The position numbers were made by a program, and so were the translations under genes. Of a DNA stretch of 64,000 bases, positions 1 through 52,688 are shown in pieces. Numbering within the stretch: the stretch's first letter is position 1; every line of letters begins with the position of its first letter. This DNA comes from an uncultured archaeon. GTDB lineage: Archaea; Thermoproteota; EX4484-205; JAAOZP01. The notes under the pieces were generated by a model. That model made no database searches and had not been told where the DNA came from. It worked only from the letters and a program-made list of their open reading frames with translations. The stretch lies in NCBI GenBank assembly GCA_938045545.1, contig CALIBN010000024.1, positions 15,119-79,118 on the forward strand. Reading direction: 5' to 3'.

Positions 1-719
1 TATGAGATGTAAGGAAGCTAAGGTAATCCACAAAGATAACGAGTGGTTCGTCTACATCTGCATCGAGAAGGAGGTTGAGAAGAGGATTCCGAGGAACATT
101 TGGCCATAGATATGGGGATAAGGTGGATCGCTACGACAGTCAATTCCAGCAACCCGGTCCCAAAGTTTTACGGCAGGGAGCTGAGGAGGGTCAGGGGACG
201 CTTCTTTTACCTAAGAAGAAGCCTTGCATTGAAGAAGGCATACGGAGCAATAAAGAAGATTGGTGATAGGGAGCGAAGGATGGTGAACGATATCCTGCAT
301 AAGATAAGCAGGAGGATGGTGGACGAGGCCTTGGAGACGGATGCGATGATCGCCATGGGGAACTTGAAGGGAATTAGGGAAAATGATAAGGGCAAAGGTT
401 CAACAGGAAACTCAATGGATTTCCATACTGGAAGCTCAGCAAGTTCATAGAGTATAAGGCGAGGTGGCTTGGAATAAAAGTGATCAAAATAAACGAGAGG
501 AACACTTCGAAGCTTTGCCATAGATGCGGAAAGAAAGGAATCCGCGATGGAAGCCTCTTCAAATGCCAGAGCTGCAACTACTCATGCGACGCAGACTACA
601 ACGGAGCAATGAACATAATGAAGCGGGCCATGCGCTATATGCGAATGGCAGGGGCTGAGTTGACACAGCCCATAACCCGGCAGGATGAACCCACAGGGCG
701 ACGAACCGGGAACCCCTAG
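1..719 (+). pseudogene. tnpB: TnpB (IS200/IS605 family) 3' part, frameshifted; 5' end outside the window
   Basis: Reads KEAKVIHKDNEWFVYICIEK...AIDMGIRW...CHRCG...CQSCNYSCDADYNGAMNI across three frames, with breaks near 99 and 395. It is near-identical to 5377..6420. The original TAG stop is now CAG. Confidence 0.9.
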
Positions 720-733
720 CATGGGGATGTCAA
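652..733 (+). ncRNA. TnpB omegaRNA scaffold / element right end (copy 1)
   Basis: GGGCTG-agTTGACA-CAGCCC hairpin, CCCGG...CCGGG stem, terminal hairpin and ATGTCAA end. The loop TTGACA is complementary to the terminal TGTCAA (pseudoknot). Confidence 0.75.
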
Positions 734-735
734 AA

Positions 736-2430
736 CTAGCGCCGAGCCCCGTAGTCTTCACTGGTTTCTTTAGTAACCAGGTACTGCAGGTCGGTCTCAG
801 GATCCTTAACCGGGATGATCCTTATTCCGCCGACCCTGCTCACCTTCTTCACGTTCTCCGGGTATTTCCCCCCGTGAAGGTGGAAGATTTTAACCCTGTG
901 TCCTCTTTTAACGATCTGCTCTAGACAGGGAAGCGCCTCCTCAATGTTCTGCCAGCCGCAATCCGTTATAATGTTTATCAAAACCCTGTTCTCGCTCTCG
1001 GAGACGAGCCTCATGATCTCGTTTAGAGGAAGTATCGTCATTCCCCCGAAGTAGAGCGCTAAGGACAATTCCTTCTCAAGCGTCGAGCCCTGCCATTCTA
1101 CAGAGTAGTAGTCTGTTGAGAAGGCTATTGAAGCTGTTTTCCCACCTATTCTCTCCACGGAAAGCAGGTTGATGAAGGCTGAGGTTGCAGCATTATGGAT
1201 AACCTCCTGCATGCTTCTGCTGGCGTCTAAAACTATTAGGCTTGAGGGCACGTTGCTTACCGTCATGCTGCTCCCCTTCCCCTTAACCTCGCTCTGCCAT
1301 TTCACCGTGTTTATTTCAATCCGCAGCCTTCCCTCGTCGAGGCTGGCCTCCAGATCAAGGTCTTCAACCTCGTCCTCAATGTTCCAATCCATGGGGTAGC
1401 TGGATATTGCTAGATTCGGCTCAGGCCTCCTGCCCTCCTCAAGATATACGAGCATCGTCCTCCTCGCCCTAGCCCTATACCAGCATACTTTCCAGAAGAG
1501 CTCTTCAACCATCTCGTTAGTCAACCCGGTGTACGGCTTGCTTACGCTCGTAGGCAGCCTGGGCTCCTGCCCGCCCTCAGGCTTAGCGCGGCGTATTCCC
1601 CCGGCTTCTCCCCTTCTGGTCTTTTTCCCACCCGCCGCTTTACCGCTTTTCCTAATCGTCTTCTTAATCTCCTCAAGCTCAGAGTTCTTCAGCCTCGATT
1701 TAACCCAGTACTCGTAAAACCTTCTCGCCTCCTCGCTGTTTTTTATTCCCCCAAGCACCTCGTTAATCTTCTCAATAGTGTTCCTGCTCAAGTCCTCCCT
1801 TAAGGGGATGCTCGCGCCCGGGCCGGCAAGCTGCCTCGGTATTTCGGCTTTAACCCTGTTTAAAGAGAGGATGAGCGCCACCAGCCTCACTTTACTAAAC
1901 CAGTTTCTTTCAGACCTCATAACCATGCTGATTTGCCTAGCCACGTTTTCAACGTTATAGTCGTATTCCCTATGGCTCTTTCTCAAGATGTGCCTGTAGG
2001 CTGCCTGAATATACCTTCCAACCCCCCTCTGCGAAGTGTTTAGAAACTGTTCGACGTGATAAGGTGTTTCCCCGAACCTGCTTAAAAGGTAGAAGCAGTC
2101 AACGTTCAAGTCGGCGAACAGCAAGACTGAGAAATACGCGGTGCCCCAGTCCTTGCACGCACCGTAAGCCTCCTTCACCAGCTCGTAAGCCGTCCTAATG
2201 TCATACGGGCAGTAGTGCAGATGAGCAATCTCATGCCTGATGACGGACCTAAGATATTTTTCACCGTCAACCTTCTTCGGAACCGCCTCCGGAGAAATAT
2301 GTACTTTTGAATCCACCACGAAAAAGGGTTTGCCACCTTCACCGTCATGCTTCACTTCCAGTTCGCACGGTGGGAAATAGAGTTCACTCCTAACCTGCGC
2401 GAAAATCCTTCTTACTTCTTCATCGTCCAT
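736..2430 (-). CDS. vWA-domain protein with N-terminal HEXXH metallopeptidase-like domain
   Basis: RHEIAHLH motif; C-terminal MIDAS VLDASRS and ITD; lies directly downstream of a MoxR ATPase. Confidence 0.75.
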   Translation of the reverse strand: MDDEEVRRIFAQVRSELYFPPCELEVKHDGEGGKPFFVVDSKVHISPEAVPKKVDGEKYLRSVIRHEIAHLHYCPYDIRTAYELVKEAYGACKDWGTAYFSVLLFADLNVDCFYLLSRFGETPYHVEQFLNTSQRGVGRYIQAAYRHILRKSHREYDYNVENVARQISMVMRSERNWFSKVRLVALILSLNRVKAEIPRQLAGPGASIPLREDLSRNTIEKINEVLGGIKNSEEARRFYEYWVKSRLKNSELEEIKKTIRKSGKAAGGKKTRRGEAGGIRRAKPEGGQEPRLPTSVSKPYTGLTNEMVEELFWKVCWYRARARRTMLVYLEEGRRPEPNLAISSYPMDWNIEDEVEDLDLEASLDEGRLRIEINTVKWQSEVKGKGSSMTVSNVPSSLIVLDASRSMQEVIHNAATSAFINLLSVERIGGKTASIAFSTDYYSVEWQGSTLEKELSLALYFGGMTILPLNEIMRLVSESENRVLINIITDCGWQNIEEALPCLEQIVKRGHRVKIFHLHGGKYPENVKKVSRVGGIRIIPVKDPETDLQYLVTKETSEDYGARR

Positions 2431-2432
2431 CT

Positions 2433-3653
2433 CTATTCGAGCCCGAGGCCCACCTTCAAGGTTTCCTCCCGGCTGATCCTGCCTTCCCTAACCCATTTCT
2501 CCTCTAGGGAAAACAGCTCCTCGGCGAAAACATTATCCTCAGCAGCTATTTCTTTAGCGGTCCTATATAGGCCTGGGCTGAAACCGTTGTAAAGCTCGTT
2601 CAGGATGAACCATTGTTTCCTGGATTCTCGTTCAAACATTCTCTCCCTCTCCCTTTCAAGCAACTCGCTGATTTCCTTCAAGGGTTTCTCAGGGTTTAGG
2701 AAGCCTGTCCTATGTATGAGAACCCATTTAGCCATCTCGATCACATCCTTCTCCTCAACCTTTCCCTCAAGCCACTTCTTAGCCTTGACGAGTTGAAGCA
2801 GGATGAGGGTTGCCCTCTCGCTCGGAGGCTCCTTAACCCTGCTGCAGACGAACCTGGTGAAATGGCAGCCCTCGCACAGGACTGGAAGGGGGACGCTGCT
2901 ATGCTCCTTACCCCTGACGCACACTTGAAAGTCTCTGACGAGCGTGTTTATGAAGCCGATTAAACCTGGTTCAACCCCGGTTTCCTCAACCTCCCTCCTT
3001 ATCTCCGCCAGGTCCCCCGGCTCCATGACGCGCGGCATGGATTTTATCAAATCGTAGCCGTAATCATTGTTCAACTCTTGGAGAGCGAATTTTTGGCTCA
3101 CCGTGAGCGAACTCAGGTAGAGAGCAATGTCAAACCTGTCGTAGAACGGCGGAGGCTGTATGAAAGTCGTCACGTCACCCGGGTTCTCGTTAGCTATGAG
3201 AGTATAGTCTTCAACAGTATACTTCTGCCCGTAGGCCCATACTTCTCCGAACTGCATCAAATGATGAATGTTCGCAGTAGTGTAGGGGTTAAGCCTGTTC
3301 ACCTCATCTATCCCCTTGCCCTGGGCCCGTACGAACTTAGCCCAGAGGACTTTCTCCCTGCCCTTCTTCTCAAGCGAAGGAATATGGAGTCTTCCAACAA
3401 CCTCCCCTCTCTTCACCTCGGAGGCTCCTGAAATGACGACAAACTCGTCTCCGAAGAGGCCTTTCAAAACAAGCAGCATCAGCGTGGACTTGCCTGTTCC
3501 CCTGGGCGCCCTTATCAGCGTTGTGGACTTCCTGTGAAGCAGGTTCAGCAAAAGTATTGAGATTACCTCCTCGTTGCCGATGAACCTTTTAGAAAGCTCT
3601 TCTCTCAGCCTTTCCACGAGAGGCCTCTTGCTACTCACGCTAACCATCCCCAT
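2433..3653 (-). CDS. MoxR-family AAA+ ATPase
   Basis: Walker A APRGTGKST, Walker B IDEVNR, ANENP and YDRF motifs, Cys cluster CxxC. Confidence 0.85.
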   Translation of the reverse strand: MGMVSVSSKRPLVERLREELSKRFIGNEEVISILLLNLLHRKSTTLIRAPRGTGKSTLMLLVLKGLFGDEFVVISGASEVKRGEVVGRLHIPSLEKKGREKVLWAKFVRAQGKGIDEVNRLNPYTTANIHHLMQFGEVWAYGQKYTVEDYTLIANENPGDVTTFIQPPPFYDRFDIALYLSSLTVSQKFALQELNNDYGYDLIKSMPRVMEPGDLAEIRREVEETGVEPGLIGFINTLVRDFQVCVRGKEHSSVPLPVLCEGCHFTRFVCSRVKEPPSERATLILLQLVKAKKWLEGKVEEKDVIEMAKWVLIHRTGFLNPEKPLKEISELLERERERMFERESRKQWFILNELYNGFSPGLYRTAKEIAAEDNVFAEELFSLEEKWVREGRISREETLKVGLGLE

Positions 3654-3949
3654 GCGGCCGCTGCCAGGGAAACAATTAGGAGTAAAAGCAGTATTCTAAG
3701 CCTCAGCATGAGGCTTTTAATCCTCCTCTCCATCCAGTTAATCCTGTCGAGGATGTCGAAAGCAGTACTCCTGTCGAGATAAATGTAGTCTCCAGAAGTC
3801 TTGTTCGAATACGCGAACTCCAGGAACCCTGTGAAAGAATACTTGTCTCTCTTAACCTCTTCATCCCAGGAGATCCTCTGCCCCTGCCTCTCAACCTTAA
3901 TGTTGGTGGACTTCTCCTCTAAAAACTTTCTGAAACTTCTGCTCTCCAA
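3635..3949 (-). CDS. small protein with C-terminal transmembrane helix
   Basis: ORF overlaps the MoxR start; hydrophobic C-terminus. Confidence 0.55.
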   Translation of the reverse strand: MESRSFRKFLEEKSTNIKVERQGQRISWDEEVKRDKYSFTGFLEFAYSNKTSGDYIYLDRSTAFDILDRINWMERRIKSLMLRLRILLLLLIVSLAAAAWGWLA

Positions 3950-4059
3950 GCTGCATAACCATCGTGCGATGGTTTTTTAAGCATTATCCTGTTTTTTAAG
4001 GCTTGAGAAGCCCCAGCTTACGTTTGAAAACGTTTTTAACTTAGCCAAAAGGGTAAACG

Positions 4060-5331
4060 GTGATGAGAACATCCAGAATACCGGGCTTCTACAATTTAAG
4101 CGTGGCGGAGAGGCTGAGCAGGATAGTAGAGTACGCCGGGCTGACGGAGGAGGAGGCTAAACTCCTCTCGAAAGAGGGCAATCTAAGCCTAGAGACCGCT
4201 GACAGAATGGTTGAAAACGTGATTGGGACAATGGCTTACCCCTTCTCTGTTGCACTCAACTTCCTCATAGATGGTAAAGAGTATATCGTCCCCATGGTTA
4301 TAGAGGAAACCTCCGTCGTAGCGGCCGCCAGCAACGCTGCTAAAATGACTAGGGCGAAAGGAGGGATATTCACGGACGCCACAGAGCCCATCATGATAGG
4401 GCAGGTGCAACTGACTGGAGTAACCAACCCCCTCACGGCTAAAATGAAGATCCTTGAACACAGGGACGAAATATTGAAGCTTGCCAACGATCAGGATCCT
4501 GTTCTCGTAAAGCTCGGCGGAGGCGCTAGAGATGTTGAAGTTAGAGTGGTGGATAGTAACGTGGGCCCAATGGTGATAACGCATCTCCTAGTTGACGTTA
4601 GGGATGCGATGGGGGCGAACGCTGTCAACACTATGTGCGAAGCCGTAGCACCCCTGATAGAGAAAATAACCGGTGGAAAAGTATATTTGAGGATAATATC
4701 GAACCTTGCCGATAGAAGACTCGTAAGGGCTAGAGCGACGGTTGCCAAAGAGGAGGTCGGCGGCGAGGAGGGTGTCGACGCAATAGTGAAAGCATGGGCT
4801 TTCGCAGCAAGCGACCCCTATAGATGCTCAACACATAATAAGGGGATTATGAACGGTGTCATTGCAGTTGCTCTGGCTACTGGGCAGGACCATCGAGCTA
4901 TAGAGGCGGGTGCCCACGCTTTCGCTGCAAGGACGGGCAAATACCTGCCTTTAACCGTCTGGGAAAAGGATGAGAATGGCGATCTCGCTGGAACGCTGGA
5001 GATGCCCATGGCGGTTGGCTTAATAGGCGGGGCAACTAAAACTCACCCTATAGCGAGGATCGCGATTAAAATCCTTGGCGTTAAAACCGCGACGGAATTG
5101 GCGAGAGTGATGGGCGCCGTAGGTCTAGCTCAGAATCTTGCAGCCCTTAGAGCGTTGGCGCTCGAGGGGATTCAAGCAGGCCATATGAGGCTTCACGCGC
5201 GTAACATAGCGATTATGGCGGGTGCCACGGGAGACCTGATTGAGAAGGTCGCTGAGCAGATGATTAAGGAAAGGAAGATAAGGTTCGATAGGGCCCAGGA
5301 GCTCGTCAAGGAATTCACGGAGAAGAAGTGA
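4060..5331 (+). CDS. hmgA: hydroxymethylglutaryl-CoA reductase, class II
   Basis: ENVIG, EETSVVAAAS, DAMGANAVNT, HNKGIMNG and GHMRLH motifs. The stop codon TGA is supplied by the adjacent element end. Confidence 0.95.
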   Translation: MMRTSRIPGFYNLSVAERLSRIVEYAGLTEEEAKLLSKEGNLSLETADRMVENVIGTMAYPFSVALNFLIDGKEYIVPMVIEETSVVAAASNAAKMTRAKGGIFTDATEPIMIGQVQLTGVTNPLTAKMKILEHRDEILKLANDQDPVLVKLGGGARDVEVRVVDSNVGPMVITHLLVDVRDAMGANAVNTMCEAVAPLIEKITGGKVYLRIISNLADRRLVRARATVAKEEVGGEEGVDAIVKAWAFAASDPYRCSTHNKGIMNGVIAVALATGQDHRAIEAGAHAFAARTGKYLPLTVWEKDENGDLAGTLEMPMAVGLIGGATKTHPIARIAIKILGVKTATELARVMGAVGLAQNLAALRALALEGIQAGHMRLHARNIAIMAGATGDLIEKVAEQMIKERKIRFDRAQELVKEFTEKK

Positions 5332-5409
5332 CATCCCCATGCTAGGGTTCCCGGTTCGTCGCCCTGTGGGTTCATCCTACCGGGTTATGGGCTGTGTCAA
5401 CTCAGCCCC
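5328..5409 (-). ncRNA. TnpB omegaRNA scaffold / right end (copy 2)
   Basis: Same hairpins as 652-733; overlaps the tnpB 3' end and ends ATGTCAC. Confidence 0.75.
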
Positions 5410-6420
5410 TGCCATCCACATGTAGCGGATGGCTCGCTTCATTATGTTCATCGCTCCGTTGTAGTCTGCGTTGCATGAGTAGTTGCAGCTCTGGCATTTG
5501 AAGAGGCTTCCTTTGCGAGTTCCTCTATTTCCGCATTTATGGCATAGCTTCGAAGTGTTCTTCTCATTTACTTTTATTACTTTGATCCCGAGCCATCTAG
5601 CCTTGTACTCTATGAGCTTGCTGAGCTTGCGATAGGGGAATCCATTTAGTTTCCTGTTGAACCTCTTGCCCCTATCGCCATCCCTGATCCCCTTTAAGTT
5701 CCCCATTGCGATCATCGCATCCGTCTCCAAGGCCTCGTCCACTATCCTCCTGCTTATCTTATGCAGAATATCGTTCACCATCCTTCTTTCCCTATCTCCA
5801 ATTTTCTTGATCGCGCCGTATGCCCTCTTCATGGCGAGGCTTCTTCTTAGGTAAAAGAAGCGTCCCCTGACCCTCCTCAGCTCCCTGCCGTAAAACTTTG
5901 GGACCGGGTTGCTGGAATTGACTGTCGTAGCGACCCACCTTATCCCCATATCTATGGCCAAGACATTCTTCGGGATCCTCTTCTCAACTTTCTTCTCAAC
6001 GCAAATGTGGATGAACCACTCGTTGCCCCTGCGAATCACCTTGGCCTCCTTAAGCCCCATATCGCCCGTTATGGGCTCATGAGTCCTAATCGGAACCCTT
6101 ATCCCTCCCCAAACGCCGTAGACGGGTATCTTAAGCAAGTAGGGGCTTTGCTCGATTTCAATTCGGTAGGTGTCGTTCCTCAGCATTAGCGGATACTCCC
6201 CCTCCTTCAGCTTCCCGTTCAGCCTCCTCAGAAACCTCTCCGCGGCTTGCTTCGTGGCAGAGTATACCATAGCGGATTTCTCTCCCCTCAGGTAGCGCTG
6301 GAAGCTCTCGTACTCGCGCCTAAGGAGTTCCTCTTCCTCCCTCTTAAGCTCAAGTATCTTCGCCTTTATAGTCTTCCTAGCTGTAACATAGTTACTTTTC
6401 TCTGATTCTGAAAAAGACAT
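5377..6420 (-). CDS. tnpB: RNA-guided endonuclease TnpB, intact, 347 aa
   Basis: RuvC-I LAIDMG, RuvC-II IAMGNL with alternative E in VNEKNTS, Zn ribbon CHKC/CQSC, RuvC-III NADYNGAMNI. RBS GGAGGTGG upstream. Confidence 0.95.
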   Translation of the reverse strand: MSFSESEKSNYVTARKTIKAKILELKREEEELLRREYESFQRYLRGEKSAMVYSATKQAAERFLRRLNGKLKEGEYPLMLRNDTYRIEIEQSPYLLKIPVYGVWGGIRVPIRTHEPITGDMGLKEAKVIRRGNEWFIHICVEKKVEKRIPKNVLAIDMGIRWVATTVNSSNPVPKFYGRELRRVRGRFFYLRRSLAMKRAYGAIKKIGDRERRMVNDILHKISRRIVDEALETDAMIAMGNLKGIRDGDRGKRFNRKLNGFPYRKLSKLIEYKARWLGIKVIKVNEKNTSKLCHKCGNRGTRKGSLFKCQSCNYSCNADYNGAMNIMKRAIRYMWMAGAELTQPITR

Positions 6421-6435
6421 TTAGCACCACCTCCT

Positions 6436-6584
6436 GGGAGCCGGAGCGATAGCCCTGGCTAACGCTGATACTTAGCGAAAGCCACGCTGGGCCTATACCC
6501 GATTAAAAGCGGGTTCCAGCCACTACAAAGCAGGCTAAGAGGTTCTTTCTAAAACTCCCTGTTTCATGCTCCTCCGCAGCTCCC
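6436..6584 (-). ncRNA. ~150-nt structured RNA / leader upstream of tnpB
   Basis: Closing stem GGGAGCU/GGCUCCC and several internal stems. Compensatory changes relative to the second copy at 52255-52404. Confidence 0.65.
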
Positions 6585-6607
6585 AATTATGTTAAACAGA
6601 TGGGAGG

Positions 6608-6681
6608 TATATAGATATTCTGATGGCATATGGATGTCACTCGGATGGAACACGGATGACACACGGCCGCCTTTTTAAATA
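6608..6681. promoter_or_regulatory. divergent promoter region: TATA-like box for tnpB (6608-6614, minus) and for the TM-wHTH gene (6672-6681, plus), separated by an 11-bp repeat array
   Basis: CTATATA lies ~25 nt upstream of the structured RNA 5' end; TTTTTAAATA lies upstream of 6745. Similar AT-rich boxes are kept in the 52160-52231 copy. Confidence 0.55.
6622..6667 (+). repeat. 4 x 11-bp tandem repeat (GATGnnAcacG)
   Basis: GATGGCATATG GATGTCACTCG GATGGAACACG GATGACACACG GC. Confidence 0.85.
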
Positions 6682-6744
6682 TGCGGAGGGGGCGTTGCAA
6701 CGGAGTAAAGCATTTCTACCTCTCCGAATGTTAAAAGTAGGCAA

Positions 6745-7545
6745 ATGGGGATGCTGGGACACGTAGTGAGGCTGTTTTCCGCTGTAATCATTGGACTGCT
6801 GTTTTCATACCTCGTTTATCGGGCCTTGACCACTCTAGATAGTTTCCTAGCATCGATCCTCTCTCTCGGCCTCATGATGAGCATGCCCCTCACGCTAATC
6901 CTGGTTTTCTACAACAGGCTTCGCTGGGGAGCATTTTTCTTCGTGGCCGTCTGGCTCCTCTACGCCTCAGCGGTATGGCTCTACATGCTGGCCGGCTTTT
7001 TCACAACAGTCTTTCATGGACAGGCTTGGATACCCGTTTTCATATTAAGCATCGGCGGAATAGCCTTTCTCTTAGTTGTTCTCAGGAGGAGAGGGATAGG
7101 CCTCCCGCAGGTATTTCAAGGGAAAGGGGAGAGCTTGAAAGGTGTTAAAGAGATTCAGGAGGTTGCTGAGGAGCCCGTAGAAGGGGTCGTTGAGCCCGAG
7201 CCCCAAGAGGAGCCGGATTTCTCCCGAACCATGGAACTCCTGGATGAGGCCCACTGCAGGATCCTTGAAACCCTATTGGAGTCGGGCAGCCCGTATTCGA
7301 AGAAGGAGTTAGCCAAGGCTATTGGGGCAACATACAGAAGGGTTCTTAGGGCGGTCGAGGAGCTTGAGAAGCTTGGGCTCGTCGAGGTTAAGGAAGCACC
7401 GAGGAGTGCGAGGGGCTCCTCCGTAGTTCATGCCGTCAAGCTATCCCCAGCTGTATCTAGGAGGAGCGAGCTGGCCAAGGAGATGGTTAAGAGGAGGATG
7501 GAGGAGCTCGGGGCGGTTAAGGGCAGGGCTAAAACAAGCGCATAA
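6745..7545 (+). CDS. membrane protein (about 4 TM) with C-terminal winged helix-turn-helix
   Basis: Hydrophobic N-terminal ~115 aa, acidic Pro-rich linker, then RILETLLESGSPYSKKELAKAIGATYRRVLRAVEELEKLGLV. Confidence 0.8.
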   Translation: MGMLGHVVRLFSAVIIGLLFSYLVYRALTTLDSFLASILSLGLMMSMPLTLILVFYNRLRWGAFFFVAVWLLYASAVWLYMLAGFFTTVFHGQAWIPVFILSIGGIAFLLVVLRRRGIGLPQVFQGKGESLKGVKEIQEVAEEPVEGVVEPEPQEEPDFSRTMELLDEAHCRILETLLESGSPYSKKELAKAIGATYRRVLRAVEELEKLGLVEVKEAPRSARGSSVVHAVKLSPAVSRRSELAKEMVKRRMEELGAVKGRAKTSA

Positions 7546-7557
7546 AACCCATCGTTT

Positions 7558-7614
7558 GCCGTGTGTTATCCGTATGACATCCGTGTTCCATCTGAGTGCC
7601 ATCCGTGTTACATC
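7558..7614 (-). repeat. 5 x 11-bp tandem repeat, inverted relative to 6622-6667
   Basis: Minus strand reads GATGTAACACG GATGGCACTCA GATGGAACACG GATGTCATACG GATAACACACG GC. Confidence 0.85.
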
Positions 7615-7653
7615 GGGATGCTTATGAATGGGGATATCGATGATTGAACGGAA

Positions 7654-9849
7654 TTGATCGAGGAGTTCAGAAGGGTAGTCTACGAGAGGGTTGAGGTGAG
7701 CAGCTTTAGGAAGCGCGTTGAGCAAGCCCAGCCTAAGCGAGTTAAGGCCTTCAAAATCCTCGGAAGTACGGTTGTCCTAGGTAAAGACGTTTTCAGCGTT
7801 TCGGGGAGGCTTGTTTCAGAGATAAGGCTCAGGTCGGCTGATTACGAGGAGAATAAATCCGAGGTTAAGATGCTTCAAGGCCTTTCGGCAACGGGCTTCG
7901 AGGGAATGTTCACGATATCCTATGAGCCCTTCAACTATGAGGTGAGGTTCTCAATAACCTCGAAATCCCCAAGGGAGCTTAGACTCATGGCTTCAAGGCT
8001 TAAGGCCTCAATACTGGCAAGCAGTCCCGGAGCTGAGCTCGAATCGCTTAGAGCTTCCATCGATAACGTGCTATGGCCCCTAGGAGGCTTCCCGGTCTCC
8101 AGGCGGGAAAACAGGTTGATCCTGCTTAGGGGTAAGGAAGTCTCAGCAGCATCATTCCTGTTAATTAAGCTGAAAGAGGAGATGATTAGCCTTCTCGAGG
8201 ATGGCCTTGAGAACGCCTTAAGGTCCTCTGCGGAATCAGGATGTTCGTTCAGGTTCTGCGTCCCGGTCAAATCATGCAGAGGATTCGCCCACCTTCTAAA
8301 CACATGGGTAAAGAAGAAGGATATTCTATCCAGATATTCCAAGGCCTACAGGGAGCTTAGGGAGAATGGGCTTTTTAACAGCAGGGGCGAGCTCATAGGC
8401 GTTGACCTAAGTAAGTCAACTAAGCTTGAGCTTCTCCGCTCTCAGTACGAGAGGCTTAACGGACAAACGGGATGTTGGACATGCTCTCCGATAATAGTAG
8501 TGATAGGAACTCCCGAGAGGGACCCTAGGCAGGCTTGTGAAAAACAGAGGGAGTACGTTGAAGCTGTCAAGGCATCTTTCTCATCATCCTACAGGGTTAA
8601 GATCGAGGAGGCTGGGTGGCTGAACCTAGGGGAGGTAGCGAGAAGCATACTCGTCAGGGGGATAACGAGCTTGAACAAACTTCATGTAACCGGCGATGAG
8701 TTATCTTGTTTCATAAGCTTTCCCAAGCCAATAACGCCAAGCATATCCTACATGCCGAAGAAGATCGTTGAATTCGGAGCCTTCGACCCGGCTGAGCTCA
8801 GGAGGAATGGTATACTCCTAGGATACTATGAATCCATGAGAAAGAGGTTTGGGGTCAGAATAGGGATAGAAGACCTTCCCCTACATTTAGCTATATTCGG
8901 CGTCCCGGGCTCAGGGAAGAGCACTCTAACAAAGGCACTTCTGAGGAGATACAGGGAGCTAGGAGGTTTTGCGATGGTCTTCGACAGGCATGGAGAGTAC
9001 GTTGACGAATTCGATAATGCCCTAGTCCTCAATACGGATAATGCCAGGATAAACCTCCTAGACCACCACGGTGACCCGGAGGGCCATGCTAAGATCCTGG
9101 GCGAGGTCTTCGCGATGGCTTGGCCGGATGAGTTCGGGCCGTTGGTTTCACACGTTTTCAGGAAGATGTACCTGAAGTACATTAAAGGAGTCAGCCACCC
9201 CGATTTCCTGGAATTCGTAGAATTCCTCGAGAAGGACGCCAACTCGGAGGACCTGACGTTCCTTCGCTCCGGAAAGGCTAGGGATAAGCTGTTCTCGCTA
9301 GTGGGGAGGCTTAGCGAGCTAGCCCAGGGGAGCATTGGAAAGGTGTTCGACACGGTTGGGGGGCAAGGGGGCGTGATGGAGAGGCTGCTCTCGGGCATGG
9401 TCGTCTTCGATTTAAGCGGCATGGATACGGATAGGGATGCGAACATACTTACATGGTTGATGCTGAAGCGAATCTACGATTATAGAAGGAAGAAGCCCAA
9501 CAGGGGTTTGCCGCACGTTATAGTCTGCGAGGAGGCTCATAACATCGCTCCAGCTAGGTTTGAGGGCCAGGAGACCATAGTTGAGAAGATGCTTAAGGAG
9601 ATGAGGAAGTTCGGCGAGTCTGTTTGGCTTATAGATCAGAGACCATTAACGGTGTCGAGGGATGTCTTGGGATTATGTGGGACCATAGTCTGCCTGAGGC
9701 TACAATACTCGAGCGACGTTGAGAAGACCGGGGACACGATGCACCTGAACGAAGAGCAGAGGCTGAGGCTGCAGGAACTCGAGTTGGGGGAGGCGATAGC
9801 ATTGCTGCCGAGAATGAAGACTGCGATACCAATCACCGTCCAGCTGTAG
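7654..9849 (+). CDS. HerA/DUF87-family (FtsK-HerA/VirB4-like) ATPase with long N-terminal domain
   Basis: Walker A GVPGSGKST, FDRHGEY, Walker B IVCEEAHN, EMRKFG and IDQRP motifs. Confidence 0.9.
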   Translation: MIEEFRRVVYERVEVSSFRKRVEQAQPKRVKAFKILGSTVVLGKDVFSVSGRLVSEIRLRSADYEENKSEVKMLQGLSATGFEGMFTISYEPFNYEVRFSITSKSPRELRLMASRLKASILASSPGAELESLRASIDNVLWPLGGFPVSRRENRLILLRGKEVSAASFLLIKLKEEMISLLEDGLENALRSSAESGCSFRFCVPVKSCRGFAHLLNTWVKKKDILSRYSKAYRELRENGLFNSRGELIGVDLSKSTKLELLRSQYERLNGQTGCWTCSPIIVVIGTPERDPRQACEKQREYVEAVKASFSSSYRVKIEEAGWLNLGEVARSILVRGITSLNKLHVTGDELSCFISFPKPITPSISYMPKKIVEFGAFDPAELRRNGILLGYYESMRKRFGVRIGIEDLPLHLAIFGVPGSGKSTLTKALLRRYRELGGFAMVFDRHGEYVDEFDNALVLNTDNARINLLDHHGDPEGHAKILGEVFAMAWPDEFGPLVSHVFRKMYLKYIKGVSHPDFLEFVEFLEKDANSEDLTFLRSGKARDKLFSLVGRLSELAQGSIGKVFDTVGGQGGVMERLLSGMVVFDLSGMDTDRDANILTWLMLKRIYDYRRKKPNRGLPHVIVCEEAHNIAPARFEGQETIVEKMLKEMRKFGESVWLIDQRPLTVSRDVLGLCGTIVCLRLQYSSDVEKTGDTMHLNEEQRLRLQELELGEAIALLPRMKTAIPITVQL

Positions 9850-51559: not shown

Positions 51560-52173
51560 ATGCCTGAAATCTTTTTTATGCATGTTCAAAGTTTTCTTAC
51601 ACGAGTGGAAAAATTTGAGCTCTAAAATGTTTGCCTCTTCTTATGCTACTTAAAAGGAGACATTAATGGGTGTTGCTGTTCTCATCCTCGGCAGCAGCGC
51701 TATCGCCTCTCCCAACCCGAGCTCCTGTAGCTTCAGCCTCTGCTCCTAGCTTAGGTGTATCGTATCAGCAATCTTTTCAACCTCGCTCTCAATACTGTTA
51801 AGGGCCTCTGGTATATTGGCCAAACCGATTCCCCGAACTTCCTCATCTCCTTAAGCATCTTCTCAACTATGGTCTCCTGCCCTTCGAATTTGGCTGGGAC
51901 GATGTTGGGCCTTCTCGCAGACTATGACGTGCGGCAAACCTCCGTCAGGCTTCCTCCTCCTATAATCGTAAACCCGCTTAAGCATCATCCACGTAAATAT
52001 GTTTGCATCCTTATCAGTATCCATGTAAGTCAAAAAATTACCATGTCTGAGAGGAGCCTCTCCATCATGCCCTCCTGCTCGCCGACAGTATCGAATACCT
52101 TTTCGATGCTTCCTCGGGTTAACTTGCTCAGCCTTCCTACCAGTGAGCACACCTTTCCACATATAAAGGCGAC

Positions 52174-52217
52174 CGTGCGCCACCCGTATTCCGTCCGCGT
52201 GCCATCTGAGCGCCATC
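52174..52217 (-). repeat. 4 x 11-bp repeat array (third copy)
   Basis: Minus strand GATGGCGCTCA GATGGCACGCG GACGGAATACG GGTGGCGCACG. Confidence 0.75.
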
Positions 52218-52254
52218 GGAATGTCTATATACCGTCCATCTGTTTAAGATAATT

Positions 52255-52404
52255 GGGAGCTGCGGAGGAGCGTGAAACAAGGAGTTTTCGAAGAGGCATC
52301 CTGGTCCGTTTTGTAGTGGCTAAAGCCCGCCTTTAATTGGGCATAGGCCACGCGTGTTTTCGCTAAAACACTAGCGTTAGCTAGGACTATCGCTCCAAGC
52401 TCCC
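52255..52404 (+). ncRNA. second copy of the structured tnpB leader RNA
   Basis: Homologous to 6436-6584 with compensatory substitutions. Confidence 0.6.
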
Positions 52405-52688
52405 GGGAGGTGGTATAGAATGTCTTCTCTGGAATCAGAGAATAGAAGAATAGAGGTAACTATATTATAGTAGAAAAACGATGAAGATCCTGGGGCTGAG
52501 CGAGAAGGAGGGAAAGGCATGAGTACGAGAATTTCCAGCGATACTTGCAGGGCGACGAACCGGGAACTCCTCACTAGGAGATGTCAAAGGAGGAAAATTA
52601 ACGAATTATTGAGAAGCTAATTCTGAAATAATCGTGTTGAAAAGCCGGACTAAAGCTTTTTATATTAACTGTAATGCCTATATTGGCT

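Follow-up and report, generated by a model that had tools for sequence, protein, structure and literature searches.

We identified a leader of about 150 nt that occurs twice in the window (the whole 64,000-nt stretch of DNA that was analyzed) and that is a real, selected, and structured sense-strand element. It most likely represents the 5' leader of a portable expression cassette with a narrow distribution, to which we assign an inferred function. The cassette comprises 11-nt tandem repeats, a TATA box, the leader, and a ribosome-binding site. An earlier note on this DNA, made from the sequence alone, had described an unexplained multibranched RNA of ~150 nt. The element is indeed real, structured, conserved, and without a matching Rfam family, whereas three of the proposed helices have been replaced and the RNA itself is a prediction.

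Copy 1 of the leader (149 nt, positions 6436-6584) is encoded on the minus strand, running from 6584 to 6436 as GGGAGCU...GGCUCCC, and scored 157.9 bits against the covariance model. Copy 2 (150 nt, positions 52255-52404, plus strand) is intact, scored 149.5 bits, and is identical to copy 1 at 114 of 150 leader columns (76%). The TATA box CTATATAC was found at 6607-6614 (minus strand) for copy 1 and at 52225-52232 (plus strand) for copy 2, and the same spacing recurs at other loci. In both window copies, ~24 nt separate the TATA box from the first G of the leader, in agreement with the previously noted start ~25 nt past a TATA box, and the TATA center lies ~26 nt before leader position 1. The position of an archaeal TATA box presumably predicts a transcription start at or adjoining this position. 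At the opposite end, a Shine-Dalgarno-like GGAGGTGG follows one base (A) past the end of closing stem P1 in copy 1 (6427-6434, minus strand), with the tnpB ATG at 6420, and one base past the last leader C in copy 2 (52406-52413, plus strand), where a 16-codon tnpB remnant comes next. The leader had been proposed to end directly before the ribosome-binding site, and the one-base gap, seen in both copies and repeated at other loci, bears this out. The further claim that it lies upstream of tnpB holds for copy 1 but not for copy 2, which precedes the 16-codon remnant in a decayed deletion derivative. The GGAGGTGG motif is kept in 10 of the 11 full-length copies, and a degenerate version is present in L041. 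A leader peptide was also considered and rejected, with AUG or GUG following GGAGGAGC in some copies and GCG in others.

Three folds were compared on an alignment of 25 sequences, which included 11 distinct full-length leaders (L001, the window's copy 1; L009; L010; L016; L002, its copy 2; L003, L011, L012, L078, L013, which equals L018, and L041) and 14 truncated copies; the truncated L021 was left out. In the best-supported fold, two stacked closing stems, P1 (leader positions 1-7/143-149) and P2 (13-18/137-142), surround the 5' hairpin P3 (25-28/45-48 and 30-33/40-43), a long three-part arm, and a variable hairpin region (104-136). The arm is composed of P4 (51-57/96-103), P5 (64-67/92-95), and P6 (71-75/84-88), the last of which forms its tip with the loop C(C/U)UUUAAU. 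The UUUAAU loop and a GAAA junction are invariant unpaired motifs. By-eye reading of the consensus internal loops did not reveal a three-base bulge with tandem sheared G-A pairs of the K-turn/L7Ae type. Among the 25 sequences, 92.2% of 614 cells are paired in this fold, and 8 of 37 pairs have changes on both sides. The number of cells with both-side changes (21) was reached in none of 500 shuffles (10.4 +/- 2.5), and sliding the partners by 1-3 columns left only 2-8 such cells.

Compensatory changes were found in five of the six helices. Pair 3-147 of P1 is changed from G-C to A-U in the L011 group, and within P2, pair 13-142 goes from G-C to A-U in L009, whereas pair 15-140 goes from A-U to G-C in L013 and is G-U in L010. 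Pair 25-48 of P3 is changed from A-U to G-C (G25-C48) in the largest mini-element lineage and is G-U in L009. Pair 56-97 of P4 is seen as U-A, A-U, and G-C, and pairs 71-88 and 73-86 show one change each. The covariation support for the fold is moderate because all of the sampled sequences come from a single genus: it amounts to ~8-9 independent compensatory events, the shuffle statistics are inflated by relatedness, and the tool itself cautions that some of its measures carry 5-25% false signals. P4 is weak, with 83% of cells paired and pair 56-97 broken in 8 of 17 sequences. P5 contains no pair with a both-side change, and an alternative partner for its 5' strand exists at 125-128, as in the helix of the earlier note (90.8% paired). 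The MFE folds of single copies agree in P1 and P2 and differ in the interior.

The fold proposed in the earlier note has 4 pairs with both-side changes on the same 25 sequences, a number reached by 149 of 500 shuffles. Its closing stem GGGAGCU/GGCUCCC is retained as P1, and its hairpin ACCCG/CGGGU with the UUUAAU loop is retained as P6. Three of its six helices (GAGCA/UGCUU, UAGU/GCUA, and UGGCUGG/UUAGCCA) are not the best supported, with 4 both-side pairs compared to 8 in the fold preferred here, and the helices 14-18/53-57, 60-62/133-135, and 63-69/123-129 add just one both-side-change pair. Since position 56 covaries with 97 in P4 and not with 15, our fold is favored over the earlier one. 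The covariation originally reported between the two window copies is mostly a one-sided wobble change (G-U to A-U or G-C), whereas the larger alignment does provide 8 compensatory pairs.

The MFE of copy 1 is -61 kcal/mol (z -2.48; 4 of 200 shuffles fold as well) and that of copy 2 is -59.3 kcal/mol (z -3.31; none of 200 shuffles folds as well). Folding energy alone cannot assign the strand because a good fold (z -3.27) is also obtained for the antisense of copy 1. The consensus fold is strand-specific, with 92.2% of cells paired on the sense strand versus 70.5% on the opposite strand. G-U pairs account for 151 of the 614 paired cells and favor the tnpB strand, as had been suggested. Among the four loci with an intact tnpB, leader identity is 0.73-0.82, compared with 0.49-0.60 at fourfold-degenerate sites of the adjacent tnpB; over the same loci, identity is 57-70% at third codon positions of tnpB and 0.43-0.73 in the upstream 120 nt. 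Based on the excess of leader identity over that of the fourfold sites and on the strand-specific pairing, we concluded that the leader is under constraint on the sense strand.

Every copy of the leader was found either in MAGs of a single Candidatus Brockarchaeota genus or on one of a few metagenome contigs. DNA and covariance-model searches located it in 8 of 17 genomes of the genus to which the window belongs, and the covariance model found it in none of 9 genomes from other genera of the order (the whole class sampled). The covariance-model search of wider taxa scored 119 first-look candidates per genome. A pattern scan of genome contigs gave 24 stretches, of which 9 are from Brockarchaeota/Thermoproteota MAGs (mostly known loci) and the others are bacterial chance matches. 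The corresponding metagenome scan gave 5 stretches, comprising 3 real ones (L076, L078, and L079) and 2 representing a chance match in a coding region. Viral contigs had no matches to the leader DNA pattern.

The leader fits no described RNA family. No Rfam 15 family reached its gathering score anywhere in the 64-kb window, and a scan of 5300-6750 at E <= 10 returned only unrelated best matches (E 1.6-8.2), none overlapping 6436-6584. Eight further loci gave no match at E <= 5, so that the Rfam search proposed earlier for this RNA came out without a family in the window, the local scan, and the additional loci. The IS605-orfB-I (RF03065), IS605-orfB-II, and HEARO (RF02033) motifs resemble the leader in that they occur beside IS605 orfB or IscB-type genes, but none matched it even at E <= 10 in the local scan; these families are present in Rfam 15 according to the accessible part of its description (PMC11701678). 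ARAGORN found no tRNA, tmRNA, or tRNA-like genes in the window. No tnpB leader of this kind is described in the literature that was searched.

The repeats of the cassette have the consensus CATCCGWGTNN. Four to five tandem units (6620-6669, minus strand) lie directly upstream of the TATA box of copy 1 and are conserved across loci, and the repeats and TATA box of copy 2 together occupy 52170-52232 (plus strand). A second array of the same repeats (7556-7615, plus strand) lies upstream of a HerA/CedD-like ATPase gene and has no leader after it. These are the only three places in the window where the repeats occur, with 8 matches to the pattern compared to 1.0 expected (none of 100 shuffles reaches 8). 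The repeats are probably an operator. The divergent winged-helix gene next to copy 1 (266 aa; 6745-7545, plus strand; Pfam HTH_24 and HVO_A0114, domain at residues ~158-221) adjoins tnpB or the leader in L081, L082, L084, L085, and L063, and its product is a candidate binder of the repeats. The N-terminal half of this protein is hydrophobic. The TATA-like TTTTTAAATA of the winged-helix gene (6672-6681) abuts the repeat array, and a single array may thus serve divergent promoters. A similar arrangement has been described for Arc-repressed IS605-family promoters, in which a small DNA-binding protein encoded beside the element is combined with repeated promoter sites of tnpA and tnpB (bioRxiv 10.64898/2026.09.24.754181, as far as its available text goes). 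However, Arc is a bacterial ribbon-helix-helix protein, and the available text of that source describes no structured leader (bioRxiv 10.64898/2026.09.24.754181); in the present case, the repeats also precede the ATPase gene of the module, and binding is attributed to a winged-helix protein by inference.

The ATPase gene (731 aa; 7654-9849, plus strand) has CedD as its best NCBIfam match (106.7 bits; cut-off 600), and no relatives of it were confirmed in viral contigs. Together with tnpB and the winged-helix gene, it forms a module (5377-9849) that recurs in L081, L082, L084, and L085. The module is without a recognizable transposase or integrase, and its three genes include no IS110/IS1111-type DEDD recombinase. 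The latter fact distinguishes the leader from the IS110 bridge RNA, which is similarly a structured noncoding RNA of ~150-200 nt, encoded in the noncoding end of its element ahead of the enzyme gene (PMC11208160, in the part of the paper available). The bridge RNA depends on an IS110-type recombinase and on loops with complementarity to the target and donor DNA, whereas the enzyme here is TnpB.

In L011, L012, and L078, the full cassette, from the repeats and TATA box through the leader to the ribosome-binding site, stands before an unrelated gene of 394-404 aa instead of tnpB (in L011, the 404-aa gene at 1665-2876). The encoded protein belongs to no Pfam family, and its C-terminal ~150 residues give weak PD-(D/E)xK/Cas4-like leads (Cas4 E 0.0026; low-TM structure leads). 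No guide-RNA homolog was found behind this gene at the three loci. L063 shares its contig with L011 and is arranged as ATPase (minus strand), winged-helix gene (plus strand), repeats, leader, Shine-Dalgarno motif, and the 404-aa gene. Since the same cassette precedes an unrelated gene, the leader is not tied to TnpB.

The tnpB gene behind copy 1 (347 aa; 5377-6420, minus strand) was assigned by the Pfam domains OrfB_IS605 and Cas12f1-like TNB, by the NCBIfam model guided_TnpB (168.8 bits), and by alignment to Cas12f chains. All five intact TnpB proteins have Gly at the canonical RuvC-II Glu position (IAMGNL versus IQMEDL in Cas12f) and NADYN in RuvC-III. The RuvC-II Gly (P0001 residues ~240-246) and the NADxN version of RuvC-III extend throughout the multi-copy clade at 44-100% identity (L102-L113). 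Large TnpB clades with a RuvC-II Glu-to-Gly rearrangement, predicted to be active via an alternative Glu, are described in the accessible part of PMC10691335. A nuclease-dead, domesticated TnpB was considered and rejected: the Gly is clade-wide down to 44% identity and matches these active-predicted classes and is thus not a sign of domestication.

A candidate omegaRNA scaffold covers the tnpB 3' end and the right end of the element (5329-5472, minus strand, ending in ...GGGGATGTCA) and is recognizable as a block retained in mini-elements; no Rfam model matches this region. Flanks diverge straight after GTCA(A/C) at the right end, and the flank beyond would be the guide; the junction 5328/5329 was placed using a related genome that lacks the insertion. 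The leader had been held to be distinct from the 3' guide RNA, and the separate retention of the omegaRNA region in mini-elements agrees with this. Like the TnpB omegaRNA (reRNA), the leader would be a conserved structured RNA of the same element and the same transcript. In contrast to the omegaRNA, which overlaps tnpB at its 3' end and extends as far as the right end by the guide, the leader is located 5' of the ORF, is followed by a Shine-Dalgarno motif and ATG, and has no variable guide adjoining, and it therefore does not have the attributes of an omegaRNA. It is also absent from close TnpB relatives: none of 12 loci encoding relatives at 44-69% identity contains it (best score 8.7 bits, E 1.2, with filters off), and in relatives from other Thermoproteota families the left-end hairpin is only 18-55 nt from the start codon. 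The leader is thus an add-on rather than part of the core transposon.

The left-end motif (GAGAAAGCC, a short hairpin, and GGATGA) is always preceded by TTTAC (L102-L113, L008, L023, and L042), and for this reason TTTAC is a likely target or TAM motif. In mini-elements, the left-end motif was mapped to 1391-1424 of L008, 1329-1361 of L023, and 1315-1347 of L042, at 87-154 nt upstream of the leader. Because of this upstream location, the repeats, TATA box, leader, and Shine-Dalgarno motif constitute an extra block of ~230 nt between the left-end hairpin and tnpB in this genus, and the leader is not the left-end subterminal hairpin, as the canonical motif sits elsewhere. Deletion derivatives break at leader positions ~55, 61, 76, 107, or 118 or at 100 nt into the ORF and are fused there to the final ~145 nt of tnpB, presumably the omegaRNA, with a different 3' flank at every site. 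In five to six independent derivatives, the promoter has been retained together with leader positions 1-55 or more, P3 included. A resolvase fragment was detected in 1 of the 17 genomes of the genus, which are incomplete MAGs.

Copy 2 resides in an insertion of ~1060 bp (51560-52618, plus strand) that contains a fragment of the ATPase gene, repeats, the leader, tnpB remnants, and a right end and that is absent from the orthologous site of three related genomes (G014, G003, and G013). After the leader and the 16-codon remnant come further scraps of tnpB and the 3' remnant of the right end and omegaRNA region (52550-52586, plus strand), which ends in GATGTCA (52580-52586). Both sides of the insertion carry an imperfect copy (45 nt) of the 3' end of the gene upstream, the right-hand one with an inversion of its middle 21 nt, and at uninterrupted sites the sequence matching the right flank comes after GTTTAC. 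As to the outer boundary of the module at copy 1, the synteny shared with G003 does not continue past the HMG-CoA reductase gene, and no alignment was obtained between the distal ends of the two window copies. A second, frameshifted copy of tnpB extends across the start of the window (1-733, plus strand); its right end ...GGGGATGTCAA finishes at 733, and its orientation is inverted relative to copy 1 (5329-6669, minus strand). The gene block 736-5331 is inverted compared to the related genome G003 (L087), which fits recombination between the two tnpB copies.

With respect to function, there is about an even chance that the leader works in cis, as the 5' untranslated part of the tnpB transcript, and determines how stable the mRNA is and how well it is translated. 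Its position, sense strand, and conservation are those of a generic cis-regulatory 5' leader, with a predicted transcription start. A regulatory leader was one of three options offered in the earlier note, and it is the best fit of the three given the TATA-to-RBS framing and the purifying selection. The transcription start, the effect on stability and translation, and the binding partner of the leader are presumed in the following model. The transcript would start inside P1, and its 5' end would be shielded from decay by the fold. The 3' strand of P1 would place a rigid helix against the ribosome-binding site, one base away, and the GAAA junction and the UUUAAU loop are probable sites of protein docking or of tertiary contacts. 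The leader may in this way fix the lifetime of the transcript and the amount of a potentially harmful nuclease that is translated from it, and the same transcript would also have to yield the 3' guide RNA. The ribosome-binding site is outside both the consensus and the MFE folds and is not sequestered, and classic translational occlusion is thus not evident.

It is also conceivable, though unlikely, that processing of the mRNA releases the leader as a stable small RNA that works in trans, similar to the structured 5' end of the IS200 tnpA transcript in Salmonella. This possibility is consistent with its compact, closed, and highly structured domain with conserved loops and with the persistence of intact leaders where tnpB has decayed (L002, L003, and L016), although the decay of tnpB may simply be recent, and there is no terminator or recognizable processing site between the leader and the ribosome-binding site in either window copy. 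The precedent is the tnpA mRNA of IS200, which has a structured 5' UTR that gives rise to the 5'tnpA sRNA, according to the accessible parts of PMC4513863, PMC5435999, and PMC12594629, the last two of which cover the UTR-derived sRNA. In both systems, a structured 5' RNA of an IS200/IS605-type gene is located between its own promoter and the coding region and, as far as these sources go, is presumed to restrain expression. However, the IS200 case is bacterial and concerns tnpA rather than tnpB, and its mechanism as described there involves an occluded ribosome-binding site as well as an antisense sRNA. The leader studied here is a 150-nt multi-helix domain with the ribosome-binding site outside and no sequence relationship to IS200, and its cassette also serves a non-transposon gene. 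A broader and somewhat less probable proposal is that the leader belongs to a new archaeal class of structured regulatory RNA, either as a switch operated by a protein or ligand or as a trans-acting RNA produced by processing. It would be common to two unrelated nuclease-type genes (TnpB and a PD-(D/E)xK-like protein) of a mobile module of Brockarchaeota, which, through the leader, the winged-helix protein, and the 11-nt repeats, would control all copies of the transposon and its mini-elements that retain only the guide RNA.

We regard as improbable a conformational switch (riboswitch, thermosensor, or protein-operated) between alternative pairings of the leader. Three GGCU-like and two AGCC/GGCC segments would allow mutually exclusive helices, such as 64-67 with 92-95 or 125-128 and 101-105 with 125-129. 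The previously proposed helix 14-18/53-57 is 91.5% paired, the unpaired motifs are invariant, and the MFE folds differ between copies. Nevertheless, the alternative helices are without both-side changes, and the compensatory change in L013 keeps P2 but would break a pairing of the P2 3' strand with the ribosome-binding site. The leader matches none of the known riboswitch classes, and there is no evident reason why the nuclease of a mobile element should carry a metabolite sensor.

The chance is equally slim that the leader has no function of its own and is recently spread intergenic DNA with an apparent structure due to shared ancestry. The restriction to a single genus, the modest energy z-scores, and the effect of relatedness on the shuffle statistics are in line with such a reading. 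However, the leader is clearly more conserved than adjacent neutral-like sites, and neither the compensatory changes in five of six helices nor the strand-asymmetric wobble pairs would be accounted for.

A role of the fold in single-stranded DNA, either as a transposition end signal or as a single-strand replication origin of a plasmid-like module, appears more doubtful still. The ends of IS200/IS605 elements are recognized as DNA hairpins, and the leader is inside a mobile unit, by iteron-like repeats and the gene of a DNA-translocase-like ATPase. However, the canonical left-end hairpin is 87-154 nt upstream of the leader and directly before the gene in relatives, and the Y1 transposase was found in none of the 17 genomes of the genus (incomplete MAGs). 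A quarter of the paired cells are G-U (151 of 614), which would be weaker in DNA, and the exact promoter-to-RBS framing and the reuse before another gene are unexpected for an origin. The separate location of the left-end hairpin and the TATA-to-RBS framing weaken the single-stranded DNA origin suggested previously. The third suggestion, that the TnpB ribonucleoprotein uses the leader as an accessory scaffold or as a second RNA partner, is highly improbable: the leader is linked to tnpB in most copies and mini-elements fuse its 5' part to the guide-RNA scaffold, but the same leader precedes an unrelated gene at L011, L012, and L078, loci without a guide-RNA homolog, TnpB relatives at 65-69% identity are without such an RNA, and mini-elements keep only 55-118 nt of the leader, so that the complete fold is not needed for their spread.

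The reading of the element as the 5' leader of a portable expression cassette bears on how RNA-guided nucleases are controlled in archaea. TnpB is most common in archaea, and to our knowledge there is little information on the native-host expression of tnpB and its guide RNA, particularly for this domain. We are also aware of few long structured 5' leaders in archaea. The element is confined to one uncultured genus within a group of hot-spring archaea, which is a practical limit on its study. If validated, the leader would nevertheless offer a useful system for studying how archaea regulate genes post-transcriptionally at high temperature. The transposon here has taken on a full regulatory cassette shared with a plasmid-like module, which suggests host- or module-level control of an RNA-guided nuclease.
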